Assembly: GCF_044324875.1 (NCBI RefSeq) | Contig: NZ_CP172185.1 | Source: Escherichia coli | Lineage (GTDB): Bacteria; Pseudomonadota; Gammaproteobacteria; Enterobacterales; Enterobacteriaceae | Reading direction: 5' to 3' (one strand) | Length of the DNA: 64,000 nt | Part shown: positions 10,600-63,153 of the stretch, piece by piece | How positions within the stretch are numbered: the stretch's first letter is position 1 | How the letters are laid out: each line of letters opens with the position of its first letter | Position numbers and translations under genes: made by a program | Notes under the pieces: model-generated | What the model was told of the DNA's origin: nothing | Database searches by the model: none | The model's input: the letters and a program-made list of their open reading frames with translations, nothing else

Positions 10600-10800
10600 G
10601 CCGGATGTGGCGCACAAAACCAGCAGTTTCAACGGATTGTAGGCCTGATAAGACGCGTCAAGCGTCGCATCAGGCATTTGGGCACGGCTGCCGGATGCGG
10701 CGTGAACGCCTTATCCAGCCTACAAAACCAGCATTTTCAACGGACTTGTAGGCCTGACAAGACGCGTCAAGCGTCGCATCCGGCATTTTGGCTCAAAAGT
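10600..10800. repeat. REP/BIME cluster (two ~100-bp near-identical units with REP palindromes)
   Basis: Two copies of ...gccggatg(c/t)ggcg...ttcaacgga(c)ttgtaggcctga(t/c)aagacgcgtcaagcgtcgcatc(a/c)ggca... containing the characteristic REP palindrome, between convergent ssuB and pepN. Confidence 0.8.
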
Positions 10801-14882: not shown

Positions 14883-15050
14883 TATCATCAGGGAGCTAAT
14901 CGGCTCCCTTTTTTTACCTTTAATTCCGAAATCTTTCGCTGCATTTGCGAATTCTGCTTGTCTGATTGCAGATGCCAGGTAACATAGGTATCCCCCCATT
15001 TACGGGTGGACAAGTGTTTATTTTTTCCGACTATTAACAGAGAGAATATT

Positions 15051-16451
15051 ATGAGCGTTGTGCCTGTAGCCGACGTACTCCAGGGCCGCGTAGCCGTTGA
15101 CAGCGAAGTCACCGTGCGCGGATGGGTACGTACCCGCCGAGATTCAAAAGCTGGCATCTCCTTCCTCGCCGTTTATGACGGTTCCTGCTTTGATCCTGTA
15201 CAGGCTGTCATCAATAATTCTCTGCCCAATTACAATGAAGACGTCTTGCGTCTGACCACCGGCTGCTCGGTCATTGTGACGGGTAAAGTCGTGGCGTCGC
15301 CGGGCCAGGGGCAACAATTTGAAATTCAGGCCAGCAAGGTTGAAGTTGCTGGTTGGGTTGAAGATCCAGACACTTACCCGATGGCGGCAAAACGCCACAG
15401 CATTGAGTATCTGCGTGAAGTCGCTCACCTGCGTCCGCGCACAAACCTGATTGGTGCCGTCGCGCGCGTTCGCCATACGCTGGCGCAGGCGCTGCATCGC
15501 TTCTTTAACGAGCAGGGATTCTTCTGGGTTTCAACGCCACTGATTACTGCGTCTGATACCGAAGGGGCTGGCGAAATGTTCCGCGTTTCTACGCTGGATC
15601 TGGAAAACCTGCCGCGTAACGATCAGGGCAAAGTGGATTTCGACAAAGACTTCTTTGGTAAAGAGTCTTTCCTGACCGTATCTGGCCAGTTGAACGGCGA
15701 AACCTACGCTTGCGCATTGTCCAAAATTTATACCTTCGGCCCGACTTTCCGTGCTGAAAACTCCAACACCAGCCGTCACCTGGCGGAATTCTGGATGCTG
15801 GAGCCGGAAGTGGCGTTTGCTAACCTGAACGATATTGCGGGTCTGGCTGAAGCCATGCTGAAATATGTCTTCAAAGCGGTTCTCGAAGAACGCGCTGACG
15901 ACATGAAATTCTTCGCTGAACGCGTAGATAAAGATGCCGTTTCACGTCTGGAACGCTTTATTGAGGCCGATTTCGCGCAGGTGGATTACACCGACGCAGT
16001 GACCATTCTCGAAAACTGCGGCAGGAAGTTTGAAAACCCGGTTTACTGGGGCGTCGATCTCTCTTCTGAGCATGAGCGTTATCTGGCGGAAGAACACTTT
16101 AAAGCACCGGTAGTGGTTAAAAACTATCCGAAAGATATTAAAGCGTTCTATATGCGCCTTAACGAAGACGGTAAAACCGTTGCGGCTATGGACGTTCTGG
16201 CTCCGGGCATCGGTGAGATCATTGGTGGCTCCCAGCGTGAAGAGCGTCTGGACGTGCTGGACGAGCGTATGCTGGAAATGGGCCTGAACAAAGAAGATTA
16301 CTGGTGGTATCGCGATCTGCGTCGCTACGGTACTGTTCCGCATTCCGGTTTCGGTCTTGGTTTTGAACGCCTGATTGCTTACGTAACAGGCGTGCAAAAC
16401 GTGCGTGATGTGATTCCGTTCCCACGTACTCCACGTAACGCCAGCTTCTAA
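15051..16451 (+). CDS. asnS: asparagine--tRNA ligase
   Basis: Start taken at [13 protein letters not shown] inside listed ORF; 466 aa; class II aaRS C-terminus ([15 protein letters not shown]). Confidence 0.95.
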
Positions 16452-16464
16452 TTTAGCGTCTTCA

Positions 16465-16493
16465 AGAGCCAGCGCCCGCTGGCTCTTTTTTTA
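16465..16493 (+). terminator. rho-independent terminator of asnS
   Basis: Hairpin gagccagcgcccgctggctc followed by a T7 run. Confidence 0.7.
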
Positions 16494-16603
16494 TCCTTTC
16501 TGTCAAGTTATCTGTTTGTTAAGTCAAGCAATCTATTTGCAACCCCACCATAACGATCATCCTGTTACGGAATATTACACTGCAACATTTGCGCACAAAA
16601 AAT

Positions 16604-16634
16604 AATCCGCATTCTTATTGCGGATTAGTTTTTT
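16604..16634 (+). terminator. second hairpin plus T-run in asnS-ompF intergenic, immediately abutting IS200 left end
   Basis: aatccgca-ttcttat-tgcggatt (8-bp stem) followed by agtttttt; the IS200-shared sequence starts right after. Confidence 0.5.
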
Positions 16635-17346
16635 GTGCACAGAAAACCCCCAGCTAGGCTGGGGGTTCCGGAAAGCTTTCAGCTTTGAGCCAGTTATTAA
16701 AACCCCTTTTGATTTGTTAAAACACCTTGCGGTCTGGCAACTGCAAGTGTCAAACAAGAAATCAAAAGGGGGTCCCAATGGGGAACGAAAAGAGCTTAGC
16801 GCACACCCGATGGAACTGTAAATATCACATAGTATTTGCGCCAAAATACCGAAGACAGGTGTTCTACAGAGAGAAGCGTAGAGCAATAGGCTGTATTTTG
16901 AGAAAGCTGTGTGAGTGGAAAAGTGTACGGATTCTGGAAGCTGAATGCTGTGCAGATCATATCCATATGCTTGTGGAGATCCCGCCCAAAATGAGCGTAT
17001 CAGGCTTTATGGGATATCTGAAAGGGAAAAGCAGTCTGATGCTTTACGAGCAGTTTGGTGATTTGAAATTCAAATACAGGAACAGGGAGTTCTGGTGCAG
17101 AGGGTATTACGTCGATACGGTGGGTAAGAACACGGCGAAGATACAGGATTACATAAAGCACCAGCTTGAAGAGGATAAAATGGGAGAGCAGTTATCGATT
17201 CCCTATCCGGGCAGCCCGTTTACGGGCCGTAAGTAACGAAGTTGGATGCAAATGTCAGATCGTGTGCGCCTGTTAGGGCGCGGCTGGTAAGAGAGCCTTA
17301 TAGGCGCATTTGAAAAACCTCCGGCTATGCCGGAGGATATTTATTC
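16634..17346 (+). mobile_element. IS200 insertion sequence, copy 1 (IS200/IS605 family, about 713 bp)
   Basis: Limits set by where the sequence stops matching the second copy (23755..24469, inverted); contains tnpA, a left-end hairpin cccccagc-tag-gctggggg and an RBS-sequestering stem; ends are approximate to within 3 bp. Confidence 0.85.
16778..17236 (+). CDS. tnpA: IS200 transposase TnpA (HUH Y1 transposase)
   Basis: 152 aa from MGNEKSLAHTRWNCKYHIVFAPKYRR...; the HxH motif (ADHIHMLVEI) is visible and the protein closely resembles Salmonella IS200 TnpA as recalled from memory. Confidence 0.9.
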   Translation: MGNEKSLAHTRWNCKYHIVFAPKYRRQVFYREKRRAIGCILRKLCEWKSVRILEAECCADHIHMLVEIPPKMSVSGFMGYLKGKSSLMLYEQFGDLKFKYRNREFWCRGYYVDTVGKNTAKIQDYIKHQLEEDKMGEQLSIPYPGSPFTGRK

Positions 17347-17559
17347 TTAGCTGATAGCACAATTTTCATACTATTTTTTGGCGTTCTGGATGTCTGAACG
17401 AGGATTTAGTGCCAGGTCGATAAAGTTTCCATCAGAAACAAAATTTCCGTTTAGTTAATTTAAATATAATGAAATCATATAAATAGATAAATATTGCTGT
17501 AAATATCATCACGCTTCTATGGAAATATGACGGTGTTCACAAAGTTCCTTAAATTTTAC

Positions 17560-17764
17560 TTTTGGTTACATATTTTTTCTTTTTGAAACCAAACCTTTAT
17601 CTTTGTAGCACTTTCACGGTAGCGAAACGTTAGTTTGAATGGAAAGATGCCTGCAGACACATAAAGACACCAAACTCTCATCAATAGTTCCGTAAATTTT
17701 TATTGACAGAACTTATTGACGGCAGTGGCAGGTGTCATAAAAAAAACCATGAGGGTAATAAATA
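17560..17764 (+). promoter_or_regulatory. ompF promoter with OmpR-binding region and 5' UTR (micF target)
   Basis: Sequence ttttacttttggttacatattttttctttttgaaaccaaa...ttgacagaacttattgacggcagtggcaggtgtcataaaaaaaacc matches my recollection of the K-12 ompF promoter/OmpR F1-F3 region. Confidence 0.55.
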
Positions 17765-18853
17765 ATGATGAAGCGCAATATTCTGGCAGTGATCGTCCCT
17801 GCTCTGTTAGTAGCAGGTACTGCAAACGCTGCAGAAATCTATAACAAAGATGGCAACAAAGTAGATCTGTACGGTAAAGCTGTCGGTCTGCATTATTTCT
17901 CCAAGGGTAACGGTGAAAACAGTTACGGTGGCAATGGTGACATGACCTATGCCCGTCTTGGTTTTAAAGGGGAAACTCAAATCAATTCCGATCTGACCGG
18001 TTATGGTCAGTGGGAATATAACTTCCAGGGTAACAACTCTGAAGGCGCTGACGCTCAAACTGGTAACAAAACGCGTCTGGCATTCGCGGGTCTTAAATAC
18101 GCTGACGTTGGTTCTTTCGATTACGGCCGTAACTACGGTGTGGTTTATGATGCACTGGGTTACACCGATATGCTGCCAGAATTTGGTGGTGATACTGCAT
18201 ACAGCGATGACTTCTTCGTTGGTCGTGTTGGCGGCGTTGCTACCTATCGTAACTCCAACTTCTTTGGTCTGGTTGATGGCCTGAACTTCGCTGTTCAGTA
18301 CCTGGGTAAAAATGAGCGTGACACTGCACGCCGCTCTAACGGCGACGGTGTTGGCGGTTCTATCAGCTACGAATACGAAGGCTTTGGTATCGTTGGTGCT
18401 TATGGCGCCGCTGACCGTACCAACCTGCAAGAAGCTCAACCTCTTGGCAACGGTAAAAAAGCTGAACAGTGGGCTACTGGTCTGAAGTATGACGCGAACA
18501 ACATCTACCTGGCAGCGAACTACGGTGAAACCCGTAACGCTACGCCGATCACTAATAAATTTACAAACATCAGCGGCTTCGCCAACAAAACGCAAGACGT
18601 TCTGTTAGTTGCGCAATACCAGTTCGATTTCGGTCTGCGTCCGTCCATCGCTTACACCAAATCTAAAGCGAAAGACGTAGAAGGTATCGGTGATGTTGAT
18701 CTGGTGAACTACTTTGAAGTGGGAGCAACCTACTACTTCAACAAAAACATGTCCACCTATGTTGACTACATCATCAACCAGATCGATTCTGACAACAAAC
18801 TGGGCGTAGGTTCTGACGACACCGTTGCTGTGGGTATCGTTTACCAGTTCTAA
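17765..18853 (+). CDS. ompF: outer membrane porin F
   Basis: 362 aa, [22 protein letters not shown] signal peptide, C-terminal ...VGIVYQF. Confidence 0.95.
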
Positions 18854-18878
18854 TAGCACACCTCTTTGTTAAATGCCG

Positions 18879-18910
18879 AAAAAACAGGACTTTGGTCCTG
18901 TTTTTTTTAT
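18879..18910 (+). terminator. rho-independent terminator of ompF
   Basis: Hairpin aacaggactttggtcctgtt followed by a T8 run. Confidence 0.75.
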
Positions 18911-19037
18911 GCCTTCCAGAGCAATCTCACGTCTTGCAAAAACAGCCTGCGTTTTCATCAGTAATAGTTGGAATTTTGTAAATCTCCCGTTACCCTGATA
19001 GCGGACTTCCCTTCTGTAACCATAATGGAACCTCGTC

Positions 19038-20228
19038 ATGTTTGAGAACATTACCGCCGCTCCTGCCGACCCGATTCTGGGCCTGGCCGATCTGTTTCGT
19101 GCCGATGAACGTCCCGGCAAAATTAACCTCGGGATTGGTGTCTATAAAGATGAGACGGGCAAAACCCCGGTACTGACCAGTGTGAAAAAGGCTGAACAGT
19201 ATCTGCTCGAAAATGAAACCACCAAAAATTACCTCGGCATTGACGGCATCCCTGAATTTGGTCGCTGCACTCAGGAACTGCTGTTTGGTAAAGGTAGCGC
19301 CCTGATCAATGACAAACGTGCTCGCACGGCACAGACTCCGGGTGGCACTGGCGCACTACGCGTGGCTGCCGATTTCCTGGCAAAAAATACCAGCGTTAAG
19401 CGTGTGTGGGTGAGCAACCCAAGCTGGCCGAACCATAAGAGCGTCTTTAACTCTGCAGGTCTGGAAGTTCGTGAATACGCTTATTATGATGCGGAAAATC
19501 ACACCCTTGACTTCGATGCACTGATTAACAGCCTGAACGAAGCTCAGGCTGGCGACGTAGTGCTGTTCCATGGCTGCTGCCATAACCCAACCGGTATCGA
19601 CCCTACGCTGGAACAATGGCAGACACTGGCACAACTTTCCGTTGAGAAAGGCTGGTTACCGCTGTTTGACTTCGCTTACCAGGGTTTTGCCCGTGGTCTG
19701 GAAGAAGATGCTGAAGGACTGCGCGCTTTCGCGGCTATGCATAAAGAGCTGATTGTTGCCAGTTCCTACTCTAAAAACTTTGGCCTGTACAACGAGCGTG
19801 TTGGCGCTTGTACTCTGGTTGCTGCCGACAGTGAAACCGTTGATCGCGCATTCAGCCAAATGAAAGCGGCGATTCGCGCTAACTACTCTAACCCACCAGC
19901 ACACGGCGCTTCTGTTGTTGCCACCATCCTGAGCAACGATGCATTACGTGCGATTTGGGAACAAGAGCTGACTGATATGCGCCAGCGTATTCAGCGTATG
20001 CGTCAGTTGTTCGTCAATACGCTGCAGGAAAAAGGCGCAAACCGCGACTTCAGCTTTATCATCAAACAGAACGGCATGTTCTCCTTCAGTGGTCTGACAA
20101 AAGAACAAGTGCTGCGTCTGCGCGAAGAGTTTGGCGTGTATGCTGTTGCTTCTGGTCGTGTGAACGTAGCCGGGATGACACCAGATAACATGGCTCCGCT
20201 GTGCGAAGCGATTGTGGCAGTGCTGTAA
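19038..20228 (+). CDS. aspC: aspartate aminotransferase
   Basis: 396 aa; PLP lysine motif [14 protein letters not shown]. Confidence 0.95.
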
Positions 20229-20243
20229 GCGTTAAAAACAATG

Positions 20244-20272
20244 AAGCCCGCTTAAAAAGCGGGCTTTTTTAT
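20244..20272. terminator. bidirectional terminator between convergent aspC and ycbL
   Basis: Hairpin aagcccgcttaaaaagcgggctt flanked by A-run and T-run. Confidence 0.7.
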
Positions 20273-20278
20273 GCGCCT

Positions 20279-20926
20279 TTACCAGACGGGCATTTCGTCT
20301 TGCAGGAAGGGATTATGCAGGCGCTCATAACCAAGTGTGGATAATGGTCCGTGACCCGGAATAAATGTCACGTCATCCCCCAGTGGCAGCAATTTATCTT
20401 TGATTGAAGAAATCAGTTGATTATGATCGCCACGCGGGAAGTCACTGCGCCCTACTCCACCTTTGAAAATAACATCGCCAGAAATCAGCAGCTTTGCCCG
20501 ATCATCAAAAAATACGACATGACCCGGCGTATGCCCAGGGCAATGTAACACCTGTAAAGCCACATTCCCTATGCTGATGGTATCGCCTTCGTTCAGCCAA
20601 CGATCTGGCGTCAGCGGCTGGCACTCTTCCAGACCAAACATACGACTTTGCGCAGGCAAGCCTTGCAGCCAGAACTCATCTTCTTTTTCCGGGCCAAAAA
20701 CCGGCACGCCGTAATGTTGCGCCAGTTCCGCCGCTGCGCCAACGTGGTCCAGATGACCATGCGTCAGCAGGATCTGCATCAGTGTCAGGCCGCTGGCATC
20801 AACTTCCTGTTTGATTTTTTCCGCATCGCCGCCAGGATCGACCAGTGCGGCCAGTCGGGTTTGTTCACACCAGATCAATGAACAGTTCTGGGAGAATGCG
20901 GTGACCGGAATAATACGATAGTTCAT
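20279..20926 (-). CDS. ycbL: metallo-beta-lactamase fold hydrolase (glyoxalase II-like)
   Basis: 215 aa with THGHLDHVG metal-binding motif. Confidence 0.88.
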
Positions 20927-20952
20927 ACTGCCCCTGTTTCGTTAAGCGATTG

Positions 20953-21501
20953 CTACCAGTGCCGTGCTGGCCCGGTATCAATATGCACAAAGTTACTACG
21001 TGGGTAATATCCTACACCACCTGCGCGCATAGATAACGCGGCTTTGCGAATATTGCTTAACGCGATACCTTCAATATGGAAATCCATCGCCTGCCCTTTC
21101 GTGTGATAGCTTTTCTTCGCTACTCCACGGCTGCGGGCGCGTAGTTCATTGTTGGTATCAATGGAACGATAACCGGAAATGAGTTGCACCGGTTTGCGGG
21201 TGCCTAACAACCCTTGCAGGCGATACAACTGGTCGAATAATCCTGGGTCGATGGACTTTATTTTGTTCGCGCGGTAATCGCGGAAAAAATGGTTAAGTTT
21301 TGCCAATTCTTCCTGAATATAGCCTCTGCCATCGAAAAACTCCGCTTTGATTGACTCTCCGGTATGAAGATTATTGAGTGTCAAAATGCGCGGGCGTGGG
21401 GTAGAGAGTGTTGCAAACGCAGGGGTCGGCAGGATGGCGGCACCGAGTGCAACGCCACCAAGCGCCAGCAGTTTGCGGCGATTAGCGTCGAATTTGTCCA
21501 T
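20953..21501 (-). CDS. mepK: peptidoglycan LD-endopeptidase MepK (YcbK; Tat signal)
   Basis: Start taken at MDKFDANRRKLLALGGVALGAA (twin-arginine-like) inside listed ORF 20953..21510; 182 aa. Confidence 0.85.
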   Translation of the reverse strand: MDKFDANRRKLLALGGVALGAAILPTPAFATLSTPRPRILTLNNLHTGESIKAEFFDGRGYIQEELAKLNHFFRDYRANKIKSIDPGLFDQLYRLQGLLGTRKPVQLISGYRSIDTNNELRARSRGVAKKSYHTKGQAMDFHIEGIALSNIRKAALSMRAGGVGYYPRSNFVHIDTGPARHW

Positions 21502-21681
21502 GATAATCAAGTCTACAGGTCAATGTTATCGTTTATATGCACTTCTGGCGCACAAGAGGCACCTTAACCGTCAGTAAAGCTGACGTCAAGATGACTCAAC
21601 CCCAGCAGTGACGGGGGCTGCAGAGAATCGCCCCCGATCATGCTAATTATTACGACAACTGATTTCCCCGAACTGCTTCAT

Positions 21682-23529
21682 TTACCTGATTAATTGTTCC
21701 GCTTTCGATACGATTTGCGAGCTGGATCGCGCAGGCAGATCATAATTGTAAATATCTGTACGATACTGGGTACGACCATCTGCACCAACAAAGGCAGTCA
21801 GGTAGTAGAGATTCACCGGAATCGACTGCCGAATATTGACGTAACGCGTATCGCCCTGCTTCAGCGCATCAGAAATACGTTTGTCATTCCATCCTGCATC
21901 CTGCAACAGCATATTCGCCAGATCAGAAGCTTTATTCACTCGTACACAGCCTGAGCTCAATGCGCGTGTATCACGCTTGAACAGATTGTGGTTCGGCGTG
22001 TCATGCAAATAAATGGCCTCTGAACTCGGCATATTGAATTTATAGCGCCCCAGCGAGTTCCGTGGGCCTGGAGCCTGCTGGAAGCGAAACGGTAAATTCG
22101 AGGCCGTGATTGTAGACCAGTCAACCTGCCATGGGTCAATCGCTTCTCTGCTGTTCCAGCCGCGCATCACCGTATAGCCATGGCTTTCGAGATATCCCGG
22201 ATCGTTGCGCACTTTCGGCAGAATATCTTTGCGTGCCAGAGTTGGTGGTACGTTCCACGGCGGGTTTACCACTACGTTGTTAAGTGCACTGCTCATCATC
22301 GGCGTTTTGCGATCGGGGCGACCGACAATGACTCGCGAATCCAGCACCTGATTGCCGTTCTGATAGTAGACCAGCGAATAGGCCGGAATGTTAACCATGA
22401 TCCCGGTAGAAAGCTCTGTTGGCAGCAAGCGCAATCGCTGGATGTTGAGTGCCAACACGCCAGCACGCTGGGCGGGCGTTACGTTTAACCAGTCACGCGT
22501 TGCCGGGCCAATAGCGCCATCTGCTCCCAATCCTTGCCATGCCTGAAAACGTTTAACGGCTTCCACCAGTTCATTATCGTAGGCGGCACGAACGGCAGGC
22601 GCAGGTTTACTACGAGACGTCGTTTGCTTGTCCATCGGCTTAGTTTCTGCTGTTTCAACAGTAACAGCGGATGGGCTGACTACCGTGTCAGTTGGCGTGT
22701 CATCGCCAGGTAGAGTAATTTTCGGCCCCCCGTCCAACATGCCTGTGCGTTGCAATATTTCGCGCAACGCCGGTACGTCGTTACTCCACTGCCCTGGGCG
22801 CAACGTTGCTTTACCGGTCAGTTGAGGCCACGGTTTGGTGTCACTGAGTAAGGCCAGTAACGATTCATGCATCGCCGCATATTGCGGATGCTGCGGTGCC
22901 AGTCCTGCAACAAACGTCGGCAATTGACCTTTATCCAGCGCCAGCTGCCATTGGTTAATCACCGAAAGCGGCGGCGTTGCAAGCGCATAAGGTTTACTGC
23001 TATATAGCCAGCGAGTGCCTTTGACCGGAATATTTGCAATGAAATGGAGATAGCCCATCATCGCATCAGAGAGCACGACGTCGCGTGCCATCCCGTTAAC
23101 ACCAGGATCGGTCAGTAACTCTACCCATTTATTAAACTGCGGCTGGAAACCGGCAATCGCCACCTCGGCCAGCTGTTGCTGGAAGGCTTTAACAGCATCA
23201 CGGTTTTCCCACATGGGTTGCATATCGCGTGCGGCATACAACAGTTGAAGCTGGTTAAGATAAACCGGCTTGTAACCTGCGGGTAATTGAGATTCGATTT
23301 GCGTGCGGGCTTTTTCTGCCGCACCTTCAGGCAATGGCTGGATCCCCGCCATTATTGCCGTGGCTTGCGCCTGCGGCAGTGCCTCGCCCTGTTCACTGAC
23401 AGCCACCGGGCTGTCGCCAGGGATTACTTCAGGCTCATCGGCCTGCGCATTGAACAGTGGAGCGAATGTTACGGCCAGGCACAAACTGATTGCCGACAGC
23501 CGACGACCACACATCATATTAAGCAACAT
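21682..23529 (-). CDS. ldtD: L,D-transpeptidase LdtD (YcbB)
   Basis: 615 aa with signal peptide and YkuD-type catalytic region (HDTPNHNLF...SSGCVRV). Confidence 0.9.
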
Positions 23530-23754
23530 CCCTTGCCCCCTGTTTTTATCATACTCTGAATAGCCAGGCTGTTATTTTACGACTTACCTGTACAACGCCA
23601 ATACTCACGAAAGTATGACGAGCAAGCCTGTTACTCATCAGGCTTATCTTCAGTATATAAACGCCGATACGTTTTTACATAACCTAATGTAAAGAAGTTT
23701 AAAGAAAAGCGCGCCGTAATGTGCCACTTTTTTAGTGCAGAAACGGAGTTTTCG

Positions 23755-24469
23755 GAATAAATATCCTCCGGCATAGCCGGAGGTTTTTCAAATGCGCCTA
23801 TAAGGCTCTCTTACCAGCCGCGCCCTAACAGGCGCACACGATCTGACATTTGCATCCAACTTCGTTACTTACGGCCCGTAAACGGGCTGCCCGGATAGGG
23901 AATCGATAACTGCTCTCCCATTTTATCCTCTTCAAGCTGGTGCTTTATGTAATCCTGTATCTTCGCCGTGTTCTTACCCACCGTATCGACGTAATACCCT
24001 CTGCACCAGAACTCCCTGTTCCTGTATTTGAATTTCAAATCACCAAACTGCTCGTAAAGCATCAGACTGCTTTTCCCTTTCAGATATCCCATAAAGCCTG
24101 ATACGCTCATTTTGGGCGGGATCTCCACAAGCATATGGATATGATCTGCACAGCATTCAGCTTCCAGAATCCGTACACTTTTCCACTCACACAGCTTTCT
24201 CAAAATACAGCCTATTGCTCTACGCTTCTCTCTGTAGAACACCTGTCTTCGGTATTTTGGCGCAAATACTATGTGATATTTACAGTTCCATCGGGTGTGC
24301 GCTAAGCTCTTTTCGTTCCCCATTGGGACCCCCTTTTGATTTCTTGTTTGACACTTGCAGTTGCCAGACCGCAAGGTGTTTTAACAAATCAAAAGGGGTT
24401 TTAATAACTGGCTCAAAGCTGAAAGCTTTCCGGAACCCCCAGCCTAGCTGGGGGTTTTCTGTGCACAAA
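23755..24469 (-). mobile_element. IS200 insertion sequence, copy 2 (inverted relative to copy 1)
   Basis: Reverse complement matches copy 1 over the full element including tnpA (identical 169-aa ORF translation); ends set by loss of identity. Confidence 0.85.
23865..24323 (-). CDS. tnpA: IS200 transposase TnpA
   Basis: ORF translation identical to the copy-1 ORF; 152 aa from MGNEKSLAHT... Confidence 0.9.
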   Translation of the reverse strand: MGNEKSLAHTRWNCKYHIVFAPKYRRQVFYREKRRAIGCILRKLCEWKSVRILEAECCADHIHMLVEIPPKMSVSGFMGYLKGKSSLMLYEQFGDLKFKYRNREFWCRGYYVDTVGKNTAKIQDYIKHQLEEDKMGEQLSIPYPGSPFTGRK

Positions 24470-24492
24470 GAAAAGGCGGCATTGCTGCCGCC
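24470..24492 (-). terminator. rho-independent terminator of mukB, abutting IS200 copy 2 left end
   Basis: Hairpin ggcggcagcaatgccgcc followed on the minus strand by ttttcttt, 5 nt after the mukB stop. Confidence 0.65.
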
Positions 24493-24498
24493 TTCATT

Positions 24499-27400
24499 TT
24501 AACTCGCTTGGGAAGGCACTTCGTCACTTCCAGGAAGCGTTTCAGGGAGTTGCGGCGCAAATCCTCGCAGGCCGACGACGTGAACGTGTTCGGTATTCTG
24601 GAAGACTTTACGCACCAGTTTATAGGTGGTGCCTTTTTCCGGACTGATATTTTCCGGCGCTGCGATGATGAGCTGCATTTGCAAACGTTCACACAATTCA
24701 AACAGCGTGGCGATAGAACGAGCATCCAGTCGCGCTGCTTCATCGAGGAACAGCAGGCGGCAAGGAGAGATATCTTTACCGCGCAGGCGGCGAGATTCAT
24801 CTTCCCAGCTTTGTACCACCATCACCAGAATCGACATACCGGTACCAATCGCCTCACCGGTCGACAATGCACCAGACTCTGCGCGCAACCAGCCATCAGA
24901 ACCACGGTTAACCTCAACTTCCATTTCCAGATAGTTGCGGTAATCCAGCAGTTCTTCGCCAATGGTCTGCGGCGTGCGCTGCCCCATATCAATCTGCGGA
25001 TTAAGACGCTGATACAATTTCGCCAGCGCTTCCGAGAAGGTCAGACGGTTGCTGTTAAACAGATCCTGATGCTGCTCATGCTGTTCAGAGAGCACATCCA
25101 GCAGCATGGCGTGCGTTTCACGCACGTTCACGTTGAGGCGCACGCTGTTCACCTGACCAAACGATACGTTCTGCAACCCCTGGTTGAGCATACGGATACG
25201 GTTCTGCTCGCGCTGAATGGTTTTGCGAATGATGTTCGCCACGCTGCGGGAACTGATCGCCAGTTTCTGTTCGCGGGAGGTTAATTCTTCGGTCAGACGG
25301 CTAAGTTCGATCTCCATCTGTTCGATAGCTTCCACCGGATCATCGGTACGAATAATATCCTGACGAATACGTTCACGCAGATGCTGATAAACCGCCACGA
25401 AGAACTGAATTTTACGCTCCGGACGTTTCGGATCTTCCGACATGCGCAGCACGTCGCGCAGATGTTCGTTATCCGCCACCGCCAGACGCAGCGCACCTAA
25501 CGCCTTATCCGACATAGAGCGCAAATCATCAGCGGAGAGATAAGCCAGCTCACGACGGTGTAAGCGACGCTCAACGCCGTTATCTTTCACCATGCGCATG
25601 ACTGCACACCAGCCCGCTTTCGCGGTCACTACCTGCTCGCGCATCTCAAAGTAATCCCGCTCCAGCTTGCGCAGTTTGCGGGTCAGGTTGTCCATCTCTG
25701 CTTCGCAGAAGGTAAGCGCTTTTTCCAGTTGATTGCGGCGTGAACGGTTATTGCTCAGTTGCGCGTGCAACTCGTCACGGCGAATACGCGCCCGCTCTTC
25801 TGCCCCGCTATCAGCTCGCACGCCGATATCCTGCAATTCACGTTGCAGATCATTGAGTAGCTCTTTTTTGGTGTCGTAAGAACTTTTCAGCGAAGCCAGC
25901 ACCTGGTTGTACTGACTCAACTGCGCTGCGTGTCCGCGCAACGCTTCACGCGCGCGGGTACGCTCCGCTTCCGCCTGTTCCAGACGTTCACGCAGTTTTT
26001 CGTTGAGATCGCTGTTACCGCTAAGCATTTCTGCCGAGTCAGAGTAGCTAAAGTGCGCACGACGTTGCACCACTTCCGTCAGGGCAAACGCCTGCTGACG
26101 GGCATCGCGCTGCATCTGCTGAGAGTACGCGTAATCTTCTTTTAACTGTTCGAACTGTTCCGGGTCACTCTGCAATACCGAAACGATCGGTTCCAGTTTC
26201 GCCAGTTGATTACCGAACTGCTGAACAAAACGCGCGGCTTCCTGGGCTTCATCCAGACGTTCGCGGATTTCATCGACGCGATCCGCCAGGCTGTCATCAG
26301 CCAACAAGTTGAGACGCGGCAGAATGCGGTTCAGCGCCGTAACACCCTCTTTCGCCTGCTCAAACTGAATACGCTGCTGCTGGTTATCATTTTCATGATT
26401 ACTCAACGCCCGCTCCAGTTCGACGCGACGGCTGTTCAGTTGACGGATTTCTGCTTCCGGGTCAGACTCAAACGCCACCGCCAGATGACTACCTATAAAG
26501 CGGCTGAATGCCTGATGCAGACGCTGGGTTTTCTGTACATCAAAGGAGAGCGTGGCGAAGCGTTCGGAAAGCACTTCACGCTCGGCATGGAGGCTTTCAA
26601 TACGGCTTTCACGCGCAGCACGACCAAACAGCGGCACTTCCGGGAAACGTGAATAACGCCACTGACGATCGGCGATTTTCACCACTACCGCTTTTTCCAG
26701 CTCATCAACGCTGAACACGCTGTCATCGAATGACTGCGGATCCCCTTCGATCAGATAGAGATCTTCCGGGCAATCGGTCAAGCCTTCCAGGTGCTCGGTT
26801 ACCTGTGACAGATCTGGCACCACGATGGCGTGGCGTGACGGGCCATACAGTGCCGAGAAGTACGGCGCATCTTCCAGACTCACGTCGTCATAAATTTCGG
26901 ACAGCAGCACGCCGCCAAAACGCTCCGCCAGCGCATTCAAACGCTGGTCTTCAGAACCACCTGGCTGGCTTAAACGTTCGATCTCTTCATCGACGGCGTT
27001 TTTGCGCGCGCCTACTTCATCGCGTTCAACAATGGCTTCGCGCTCACGCTCCAGCAACTGTTGCAGATATTCGGTGACATCCTGGCTAGAGGAGAACTCT
27101 TCGCCGCACTGTTCGCTCAACTGGTTGAGGCTGTTTTGCGCAGCCAGCCAAACCGGCGCACGCTGCATCAAACTCTGAATGCGAGACTGCAGCTGTTCCT
27201 GTTCCTGGCGCAGAGCCATGCGCTCTTCACGGGCGTTAGACACGCTATCGGAAAGAGAGGCAATGCGTGCTTCCAGCTCCTGATGCAGAGCTTCCAGTTC
27301 ATCAATATCAAAATTCTTGCCCTGACGTTTGCAGAAATCTGCCAGCAGGCGTTCGGCTTCTTGCTGCTCGCGCAGACGCTGTTCCAGTTCGCTTAAGCGC

Positions 27401-28959
27401 ATCCGCAACGGTTGAACCTGCTCTGCCAGGTGACGCTGATCGACCCCTTCGCGCAATAGTTCGCGAGCGACATCCCACGCCTCGTTACGCGCCAGCGGGC
27501 CATTAATTGCCACCACCAGCTGATAAGCCTGCTCAAACTGGCTGTGTGCGGTTTGCGCCATGCTCATTTTCTGCTCAAGAGAGAGCATTTTTTCAGTCGC
27601 TTCCAGCTCTTTCGCCTGGAAGGTTTCCAGCCATTCGGCGGCGCTGTCGGCGGTTAAGTCCGGCAGATGGCACAGTTCTTTGGCACGATTAAGCGCAGCA
27701 ATCGCCTGGTTATACTGGATCGCGCGCGTTTGCTGGACGTCCAGCGCCTGCTGATAGTCAGCAAGCTGGCTTTTCAGCTCGTCCACTTCCAGTTCGGCAG
27801 CTTCCGCACGAGCCTCGTTCTCTTCCTGGCGTTCGATGGCTTCTGCCACCACTTCGTTTTGCTCTTCCAGACGGATCTGCAGCTCATCGAGATCCGCTTC
27901 GTAACGTTCGATCTTCTCCTGCTGACGCAGTGCGGTTTGCACCAGGTTCAGGTGATCGCTGGCCGCCTGATAATCTGCTTCCAGATCGCCTTCGGCACCG
28001 TTGTGCTCTGCCAGCTCACGCGCCATATCGACGTGTTTGTACTGCTCAGCCGCCAGTTGCTGACGCGAAGTGTGTAGCTCGCGACGAAATTCCAGGGCTT
28101 TGTCGAGATGGACACGGCGCTCGTTGGCGTGACGCATGTAGTCCGCCGCCACGTAGTTGGTGGCTTCGCTGATCAGATGCTTAAACAGGTCACGGTCCGA
28201 CTGGGTGACACGAATCGCTTCCAGCGTCATGCGGTTTTCGCGCAGCGCCGCTTCCATGTCCTGGAACGCTTTCCGCACGCCGCTGTTTTCCGGCAACAGG
28301 TAGTCGCGCAGAGAGCGCGTAATGGCGCTGGAGATCCCGCCGTACAGCGAAGCTTCGATCAGACGATAGAATTTGCTACGGTCAGACGCTGAGCGCAGAC
28401 GACGCGCGATGATGCCCAGATCGAACATCAGCGAGTGGTAATCGGTAATGGAGTTGAACTGCTTAAACTGCACGCCTTCCATCGCCTCGAGCTTGTCTTT
28501 CAGCTCGTTCAGCGGCAGTACACGCGCCTGGCGTTCGTTGAGGGTTTCGGTCACCAGCTGCGTCGGCAGCACCGACATCGGCAGGCCCTGAATGGCAAAC
28601 GGTTTGATATCGACTTTACGATCGCGTCCGGCAACCTGTTGCAAACGCACACCGACCACCACACGCTGGTGGCGCGAGTTAATGGTGTCGAGCATCGAAT
28701 AACAGACACCCGCTTTCAGCTTACCGTGCAGACCTTTATCGCGCGAACCGCTGGTGGCCCCGGCTTCCGTGGTGTTACGGAAATGCAGCAGGGTCAGGTC
28801 GGGGATCAGCGCCGTAACGAACGCCGCCATGGTGGTGGATTTACCCGCCCCGTTACCGCCGGAGAGCGTCGTAACCAGCTCATCGAGGTCAAAAGTTCGG
28901 GCAAAAAAGCCGTTCCAGTTAATCAGCGTCAGTGAGCGAAATTTACCGCGTTCAATCAT
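24499..28959 (-). CDS. mukB: chromosome partition protein MukB (SMC-like condensin)
   Basis: 1486 aa; N-terminal Walker A (GGNGAGKST), long coiled-coil middle, C-terminal ATPase tail. Confidence 0.95.
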
Positions 28960-62857: not shown

Positions 62858-63153
62858 AATGGCTCACTCAAGCTTGCTCACGATTGATTCCAGTAACAAA
62901 CCGTATTGTGTAATTATTTCTATAGCAGTTCGCTATATAGGCTTGTATACATCGAATAATTTGAAAATCAAAGAGATAGGTAGATTTTCACTCGAAAGTA
63001 GTATTACGTGTAAGTGAGGAGTAATTATTGTTCGGTATCAAAGGGAGACAAAAAAAGCGCCCGCAGGAGATTTAACGGTACTTACTCCTCTTGCTGATTT
63101 CCTTATTTTTCAATAAGTAAACAAAAACAAGGGGAGCAAATTATCACAAATAA

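Follow-up and report, generated by a model that had tools for sequence, protein, structure and literature searches.

The control of transposase synthesis in the insertion sequence IS200 has been described in Salmonella, where Ellis, Trussler & Haniford (2015; PMC4513863) placed a terminator repeat at nucleotides (nt) 12-34 of the element, the start of the transposase (tnpA) transcript at about nt 40, and a stem-loop at nt 69-138 that sequesters the Shine-Dalgarno (SD) sequence of tnpA. The inverted repeat at nt 12-34 is described, in work cited in the same paper, as a bidirectional terminator that acts against read-in transcription. Mutations in the lower stem (positions -69 to -75 from the ATG) made the expression of tnpA-lacZ 50-fold higher and the 30S toeprint 20-fold stronger (PMC4513863), and transposition was raised in published work when control by the stem and control by the antisense RNA art200 were both relieved. 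The first ~110 nt of the Salmonella tnpA transcript also constitute a trans-acting small RNA (sRNA), 5'tnpA (bioRxiv 10.1101/2024.06.26.600842). Here, we analysed a 64,000 nt stretch of an Escherichia coli chromosome (contig NZ_CP172185.1; the whole stretch is hereafter called the window), which carries two IS200C elements of 711 bp each, 100% identical to one another and in inverted orientation. We are highly confident that the region of interest is the left end of E. coli IS200C, a single-gene member of the IS200/IS605 family that is present twice in the window. Because tnpA, its catalytic residues and the end hairpins are intact, positions 16635-17345 and 23756-24466 can be annotated as two complete, repressed but competent IS200C elements. 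The identification and the control structures are those of a textbook element that is already known, and our analysis adds nothing on IS200 control itself.

With IS200 nt 1 set at window position 16634, the published interval nt 12-34 corresponds to 16645-16667, nt 69-138 to 16702-16771, and the art200 5' ends at nt 153/154 to 16786/7. A first-pass annotation of this DNA had taken two structures at the left end to be the known IS200 terminator and translation-repressing stem, and they coincide position for position with these coordinates. The long stem, which that annotation had drawn between 16703-16715 and 16759-16771, lies exactly there: the arms ccccttttgattt and aaatcaaaagggg form 13 bp at the base of a 69-nt stem-loop in the 5' untranslated region (UTR) of tnpA (16703-16771, + strand; IS200 nt 69-138), which was recovered in both the minimum free energy (MFE) and the centroid structures. 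In the second copy, by identity and the coordinate mapping x -> 41101-x, the stem-loop occupies 24330-24398 (- strand) and occludes the SD at 24328-24335.

The SD of the first copy, read from the sequence as AAGGGGGT at 16766-16773 (+), lies just upstream of the ATG at 16778, and is identical to the SD (AAGGGGGU) quoted in PMC4513863. Folding of 16634-16800 as RNA gave an MFE of -61.9 kcal/mol (z = -4.1), matched by 0 of 200 shuffles, and the left-end hairpin (hairpin 1) was recovered together with the long stem in the MFE structure as well as in the centroid; the transcript from the published start folds at -42.7 kcal/mol (z = -4.0). The earlier proposal that the stem occludes the ribosome-binding site of tnpA was borne out by the Boltzmann ensemble, in which the first six SD bases (16766-16771) are paired with a probability of at least 0.99 for each of three choices of transcript 5' and 3' ends, and the lower stem with probabilities of at least 0.98. 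The published lower-stem mutations at -69 to -75 correspond to 16703-16709, and complementing these bases in silico reduced the pairing of the SD bases to 0.00-0.38. The tnpA 5'UTR, and with it the 5'tnpA sRNA region, maps to 16674-16783 (+) from the two published accounts (start at about IS200 nt 40-41, first ~110 nt); the 5'UTR stem-loop is also the body of the small RNA described in Salmonella. A scan for consensus sigma-70 promoters of tnpA found none, an uninformative result that fits the weak and undefined promoter that has been reported.

Hairpin 1 (IS200 nt 12-34) precedes the stem-loop at 16645-16667 (+) in copy A and recurs as an exact match at 24434-24456 (-) in copy B; its limits are given by the folds, the consensus structure of the Rfam model RF01405 and the literature coordinates. 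Its GC-rich core, cccccagc-tag-gctggggg, had initially been placed at 16650-16668, and the hairpin is indeed present in both copies; the true position is 16647-16665, so the original coordinates were 3 nt too high. Including two flanking A-U pairs, the stem comprises 10 bp (16645-16654 with 16658-16667), and it folds at -18.7 kcal/mol as RNA (z = -3.45; 2 of 200 shuffles equally good) and -11.7 kcal/mol as DNA (z = -3.1). The 23-nt hairpin sequence occurs in the window only at the two IS200 copies, with 0 occurrences expected by chance. A comparable subterminal hairpin, CCTCCGGC-TAT-GCCGGAGG, stands 9 nt before the right end of copy A (17318-17336, +) and, by identity, at 23765-23783 (-) in copy B; it is terminator-like on both strands and folds at -10.0 kcal/mol as DNA (z = -3.5) and -15.9 kcal/mol as RNA (z = -4.2). 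By analogy with IS608 and ISDra2, hairpin 1 and the right-end hairpin are probably also the single-stranded DNA (ssDNA) signals bound by the TnpA protein, a second role that the first-pass annotation had not considered.

The Rfam model RF01405 matched both copies over its full length (1-124 of 124) with 146.4 bits against a gathering score of 56, at 16645-16768 (+) and 24333-24456 (-), equivalent to IS200 nt 12-135. Its consensus structure consists of hairpin 1, a small hairpin and the long stem, and every pair in the alignment to model positions 1-23 is a standard one. The name of RF01405 is STnc490, in the literature the antisense RNA art200, yet the model matches the tnpA sense strand, including a hairpin beyond the limits of art200; a search of the antisense strand scored the palindromic hairpin alone (19.5 bits). 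The match is therefore silent on which of the two strands is expressed, and the 'STnc490' matches in the window are simply IS200 left ends.

A third and independent layer of repression, which had gone unmentioned in the first-pass annotation, is the ~90-nt antisense RNA art200 (STnc490), whose gene maps from PMC4513863 to 16697-16787 on the - strand and whose expression from the window copies is predicted by analogy. Its 5' ends at 16786/7 (IS200 nt 153/154) mark the end of tnpA codon 3, and the RNA is complementary to the first three codons. The minus strand of 16698-16787 forms a stem-loop followed by UUUUA (-35.5 kcal/mol, z = -5.2), as expected for art200, and a Salmonella IS200F copy (L036) matches the promoter region (16788-16825) base for base. 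Candidate boxes were read by eye as a -35 sequence TTTACA (16822-16817) and a poor -10 sequence TAAGCT (16798-16793), and these fit the published description of a good -35 and an 'almost unrecognizable' -10 (PMC4513863). A consensus promoter scan for art200 found nothing, an uninformative result that fits the atypical promoter in the literature.

The element itself is complete. In both copies tnpA is a full-length reading frame of 152 codons plus a stop, at 16778-17236 (+) and, with identical sequence, at 23865-24323 (-); none of the disrupting mutations that would have spoken against function was found in either. The product is a Y1 HUH transposase that scored 1.7e-37 against Pfam PF01797 (Y1_Tnp; 128.7 bits, cutoff 23) and 145.9 bits against the NCBIfam equivalog NF033573 (transpos_IS200; cutoff 55), and its relatives in the PDB are 2ec2, 2f5g, 2a6m and 2xm3, which include the TnpA proteins of IS608 and ISDra2. 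It carries H61-I-H63 and Y125 (with Q129 after three residues), and Y125 is the residue that was mutated to obtain a catalytically dead TnpA (Ellis et al., PMC4513863). At least 1000 contigs encode exactly this protein, under the name 'IS200/IS605-like element IS200C family transposase [E. coli]'. With tnpA, the catalytic residues and both end hairpins intact, the earlier view that the copies are potentially functional, if probably tightly repressed, is supported. A possible lesion of the kind looked for is seen elsewhere: three relatives (L022, L023 and L034) begin tnpA with ATGGGGACG instead of ATGGGGGACG, having lost 1 nt from the G-run after the start codon. Such a loss would shift the frame, and may be either a real inactivation or a homopolymer sequencing error.

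The boundaries of the two elements were set by comparison with empty sites. Copy A (16635-17345, +; IS200C type) lies between asnS (15006-16451, +) and ompF (17765-18853, +) and has the ends GTGCACAG...TATTTATT; comparison with the empty asnS-ompF site in L003, a different E. coli assembly (...GATTAGTTTTTT|CTTAGCTG...; in a longer stretch, ...GCGGATTAGTTTTTT|CTTAGCTGATAGC...), yields an insert of 711 bp and no target duplication. The copy A boundary is ambiguous by 2 nt (TT). Copy B (23756-24466, -) lies between mukB (24499-28959, -) and ldtD (21682-23529, -) and is the exact reverse complement of copy A over 711 of 711 positions; the corresponding K-12 spacer (L040), ...GCCGCCTTTTCTTTTT|CCGAAAAC..., shows that it too was inserted without target duplication. 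A repeat search of the window returned a single inverted pair, 16629-17346 with 23755-24472. The 718-nt repeat of '100%' identity that this search reported was not adopted as the element: there is a mismatch at 16631, exact identity runs over 16632-17346, and the element proper, as given by the empty site, is 711 bp.

The only substantial open reading frame (ORF) inside the element is tnpA; there is no tnpB, and the remaining ORFs are out of frame and overlap tnpA. The ends GTGCACAG... and ...TATTTATT are not inverted repeats of each other, and both carry subterminal hairpins. The copies thus combine the IS200-group features that we tested, namely a Y1 TnpA of ~150 aa, a length of ~700-710 bp, hairpin ends and duplication-free insertion. 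Strand-specific 'peel and paste' transposition through ssDNA would be expected of a member of this group, and its sequence prerequisites are present here. The Rfam names STnc490 and STnc130 had initially led us to take the host for Salmonella; this was rejected on OmpF and the flanks, which are those of E. coli, and the window flanks match 5425 of 5426 complete E. coli genomes. An exact-pattern scan of species-representative genomes did not return Salmonella.

Of the 5426 complete E. coli genomes, 4262 were found to carry IS200C, each at 1-36 places (roughly 14,000 in all), and the element is also present on many plasmids. The mukB-ldtD site (site B) is occupied in 97 of these genomes, and the asnS-ompF site (site A) with ompF intact in none of the 5426; three clinical E. 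coli genomes (H63-65) give a single-piece match to the asnS flank plus the complete IS200, and have lost the right flank of the window. An independent IS200 in strain E300010 (L038:9143-9860) lies right after the T-run of the asnS terminator (window 16464-16494), 145 bp upstream of site A, so the asnS-ompF spacer has been hit at least twice; this strain also carries the site B copy. The varied copy number, the differing site occupancy and the independent insertion show that the element is mobile in E. coli, and support the description of the window copies as potentially functional.

Both window copies abut a host terminator. At copy A, a terminator-like host hairpin and T-tract (16603-16634, +; a 9-bp stem at 16603-16627 followed by GTTTTTT) was called by the terminator scan and folds at -13.8 kcal/mol as DNA (z = -7.2); at copy B, the mukB terminator (24467-24494, -), defined by folding and by comparison with K-12, consists of a hairpin at 24473-24494 (DNA fold -11.8 kcal/mol, z = -3.4) and a T-tract at 24467-24472. 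The wider pattern comes from 30 distinct left flanks (window copies A and B and loci L009-L038) that span about eight genera and include Brenneria, Citrobacter, Kluyvera, Entomohabitans, Yersinia, Kosakonia, Raoultella, Salmonella and E. coli. In 26 of the 30, the GC hairpin and T-tract of a host intrinsic terminator, co-oriented with tnpA, end exactly at the IS200 left end, compared with 69 of 3000 control positions following TTT that scored as terminators (2.3%). A 27th flank (L009) also has a hairpin and a T-run and failed the tail rule. The last four flank bases read T(T/A/C)TT in all 30 flanks, and resemble the 3' end of the element, TATT.

Literature on a terminator-targeting rule for IS200 or IS1541 was limited, in a search that did not extend to older non-open-access papers, to a 2025-26 preprint that reports terminator-like sequences upstream of IS200/IS605 elements in bulk, and an incidental note that IS1541 sits in the pheL-pheA attenuator region of Yersinia. 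The pattern is thus at least partly known; a mechanism may not be. IS200 might choose its insertion sites by structure, recognizing a hairpin and T-run in ssDNA, perhaps with the GAAAA beside the end hairpins pairing with the T-run; this proposal is tentative, and we consider it unlikely on present evidence. If it were true, structure-based targeting would explain why IS200 is harmless, why it is insulated from transcription of the host and why its stability seems 'ancestral', and identical IS200 copies would at the same time be recombination substrates, as in the apparent loss of ompF from the three clinical E. coli genomes. The terminator-adjacent placement is striking, and is cheap to test at scale.

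Our data, taken with the published experiments on Salmonella IS200, support a model in which controls stacked in the first ~150 nt of the element would keep transposase synthesis very low. The GC hairpin at nt 12-34 would stop transcription entering from the neighbouring host gene, backed up in both copies by the host terminator immediately outside the element. The element's own tnpA promoter, with a start near nt 40, would be weak, and in such mRNA as is made the 5' arm CCCCUUUUGAUUU would pair with AAAUCAAAAGGGG, placing the SD inside the long stem-loop and preventing binding of the 30S subunit. Abundant art200, ~90 nt long and transcribed from the opposite strand from within tnpA codon 3, would pair with the upper part of the stem-loop and so block the 30S subunit as well, and Hfq would impose a further block.

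Conservation of the two stems was assessed on 13 diverse IS200 left ends, five from a plasmid search and eight from a genome scan, which include those of Brenneria, Citrobacter, Kluyvera, Entomohabitans, Yersinia IS1541, Salmonella IS200F and others. Across this set 95.5% of stem cells are paired, compared with 36-58% when the partners are slid, and the lower helix is 98.4% paired; the changes are mostly from U-A to U-G. Several points weigh against the model of stacked RNA-level control. No more than two pairs vary on both sides, a number that 41 of 500 shuffles also reach; covariation is weak because the sequences are so highly conserved (mean column identity 92%), and constraint on the DNA or on the antisense RNA could equally underlie the conservation of the stems. 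Codon 3 of the window tnpA encodes Asn, and that of most relatives Asp, owing to a G->A change at 16784 that is also base +3/+4 of art200. Termination, the translation block and art200 expression are all carried over, like transposition competence, from experiments on the near-identical Salmonella IS200, and are to be read for the window copies as analogies. Finally, hairpin 1 is followed on the tnpA strand by UUCCGG, with no U-run, and was not called by the consensus terminator scan; the first-pass identification of this hairpin with the known IS200 read-through terminator thus holds for its match to the published nt 12-34, while its terminator function rests on the literature and not on the sequence.

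The lack of a sense-strand U-run is one of the features that would be expected if the end hairpins, and hairpin 1 above all, were chiefly DNA-level signals for the Y1 transposase, with the adjacent GAAAA as a 'guide' to the T-rich site of cleavage and targeting, and termination as a secondary property. At both ends a perfect GC hairpin is preceded by GAAAA(A), 10 nt inside the left end and 9 nt before the right end, and the terminal TATT together with the invariant pattern of the host flank reproduces the arrangement of cleavage site and guide in IS608 and ISDra2, and the TnpA proteins of these two are related in sequence to that in the window. Guide and target pairing for the IS200 TnpA is drawn by analogy only, and the repeat at nt 12-34 has been reported to act as a terminator (cited in PMC4513863). 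We give this account an even chance of being correct; it is compatible with the model of stacked control. A different view is that the stem-loop region is retained mainly for host-serving sRNAs (5'tnpA and art200), and that the copies are domesticated regulatory loci and not a live transposon. In Salmonella, the stable sRNA 5'tnpA has invF and more than 200 genes under its regulation, descriptions of IS200 in that host call it apparently immobile, and the left end is extremely conserved across genera. E. coli IS200, however, is plainly mobile on population timescales, to judge from its range of copy number, the occupation of site B in 97 genomes and of site A in only 3 (the single-piece matches H63-65), and the independent nearby insertion in E300010; moreover, tnpA and both ends are intact, which would be unneeded if only the 5' end had been domesticated, and the known 5'tnpA targets (invF and SPI-1) are Salmonella genes. 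We regard domestication as a distinctly improbable explanation of the window copies. That the copies are inactive relics, with palindromes left over or arisen by chance, we hold to be very improbable indeed: laboratory detection of IS200 transposition is notoriously difficult, and there are relatives with a 1-nt deletion after the ATG (L022, L023 and L034) and truncated ones (L032 and L033), but the window copies have a full-length ORF with catalytic residues, complete ends and 711/711 identity, folds 3-5 standard deviations better than those of shuffles, and a hairpin sequence that chance would not supply.

Two identical 711-bp repeats in inverted orientation are also of interest as recombination substrates. 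They bracket ompF-aspC-gloC-mepK-ldtD (6.4 kb; 17347-23755), a segment that homologous recombination between them could invert; the gene order in the window is ancestral, as in IS-free genomes, so the inversion has not occurred. In one of the three clinical genomes mentioned above, the only one of them inspected (L037; NZ_CP085063.1), IS200 lies essentially at site A with a left junction longer by CTTT, ompF is missing, and the right flank of IS200 resumes just after the T-run of the ompF terminator (compare window 17346-18908). This looks like recombination between two directly oriented IS200 copies, and IS200-associated loss of a porin gene in related strains bears on antibiotic permeability.

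The two window copies are identical to each other, as are the two copies within E300010; between the genomes there are 7 differences, and these are seen even where both have a copy at site B. The pattern suggests either that the copies within a genome undergo gene conversion or that IS200 has repeatedly re-inserted at the mukB terminator. The length of the junction T-run varies between strains: the tract at the left junction of copy B (24467-24472; CTTT) is two T shorter than that of the K-12 empty site (L040:160-172) and of E300010 (CTTTTT). GC skew on the + strand is -0.038 over the window (1-64000); by this measure copy B would have its top strand on the lagging-strand template, as members of the IS200/IS605 family prefer, and copy A would have the opposite orientation.

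Some further matches lie outside the argument. Truncated left-end relics ~75% identical to the window occur beside iss on an E. coli IncF plasmid (L032:894-1060) and beside a histidine decarboxylase gene on a Klebsiella plasmid (L033:894-1010); hairpin 1 is altered in both to CACCAGC...GCTGGTTGG, with pairing retained. The Rfam scan also returned Ysr202, STnc240 and mir-28 far below their gathering scores, and these were dismissed; among them, the right-end hairpin (17313-17345, -) matched the 3' end of the Yersinia sRNA Ysr202, an RNA that may overlap an IS1541 right end, at 27 bits where the gathering score is 315. Unrelated matches above the gathering score elsewhere in the window were STnc130 (62948-63082, +; 125.8 bits) and naRNA4/CssrE (10642-10720, -; 82.2 bits).

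Among described systems, IS200F of Salmonella enterica (Lam & Roth; Beuzon & Casadesus 1999; PMC4513863) has the same architecture, a control region of nearly the same sequence and a single 152-aa TnpA. It shares with the window copies the hairpin at nt 12-34, the stem-loop at nt 69-138, the SD AAGGGGGU and the art200 promoter and start region, and the first 160 nt of a Salmonella plasmid copy (L036) show only a few differences from them. The window copies differ from IS200F in a few upper-stem bases, in codon 3 (Asn, not Asp), in their host and in the first 8 nt, which read GTGCACAG in IS200C and GTCTATGG in IS200F. Other E. coli IS200C copies encode the same TnpA protein and show 99-100% nucleotide identity to the window copies across thousands of chromosomal and plasmid loci; only their location differs. 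IS1541 of Yersinia pestis and Yersinia pseudotuberculosis (L035) is ~92% identical over the left end, has the same two structures and is likewise inserted next to a terminator, and differs in a few upper-stem substitutions, in one compensatory change from a C-G to a U-A pair and in the name of its TnpA subfamily.

IS608 of Helicobacter pylori and ISDra2 of Deinococcus radiodurans, which serve as mechanistic models for the IS200/IS605 family, encode homologous Y1 HUH TnpA proteins (2a6m, 1.1e-18; 2xm3, 4e-16), have subterminal hairpins at both ends and insert without duplication 3' of a short specific sequence. They also carry tnpB and target TTAC and TTGAT, respectively, whereas in IS200 the sole gene is tnpA and the target is T-rich and adjoins host terminators, and the terminator hairpin, the SD-occluding stem and art200 have not been described for them. 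IS10 is an unrelated DDE transposon in which a cis-encoded antisense RNA likewise blocks ribosome binding to the transposase mRNA, through the RNA-IN/RNA-OUT pair; the pairing in IS10 is assisted by Hfq, whereas art200 acts without it.

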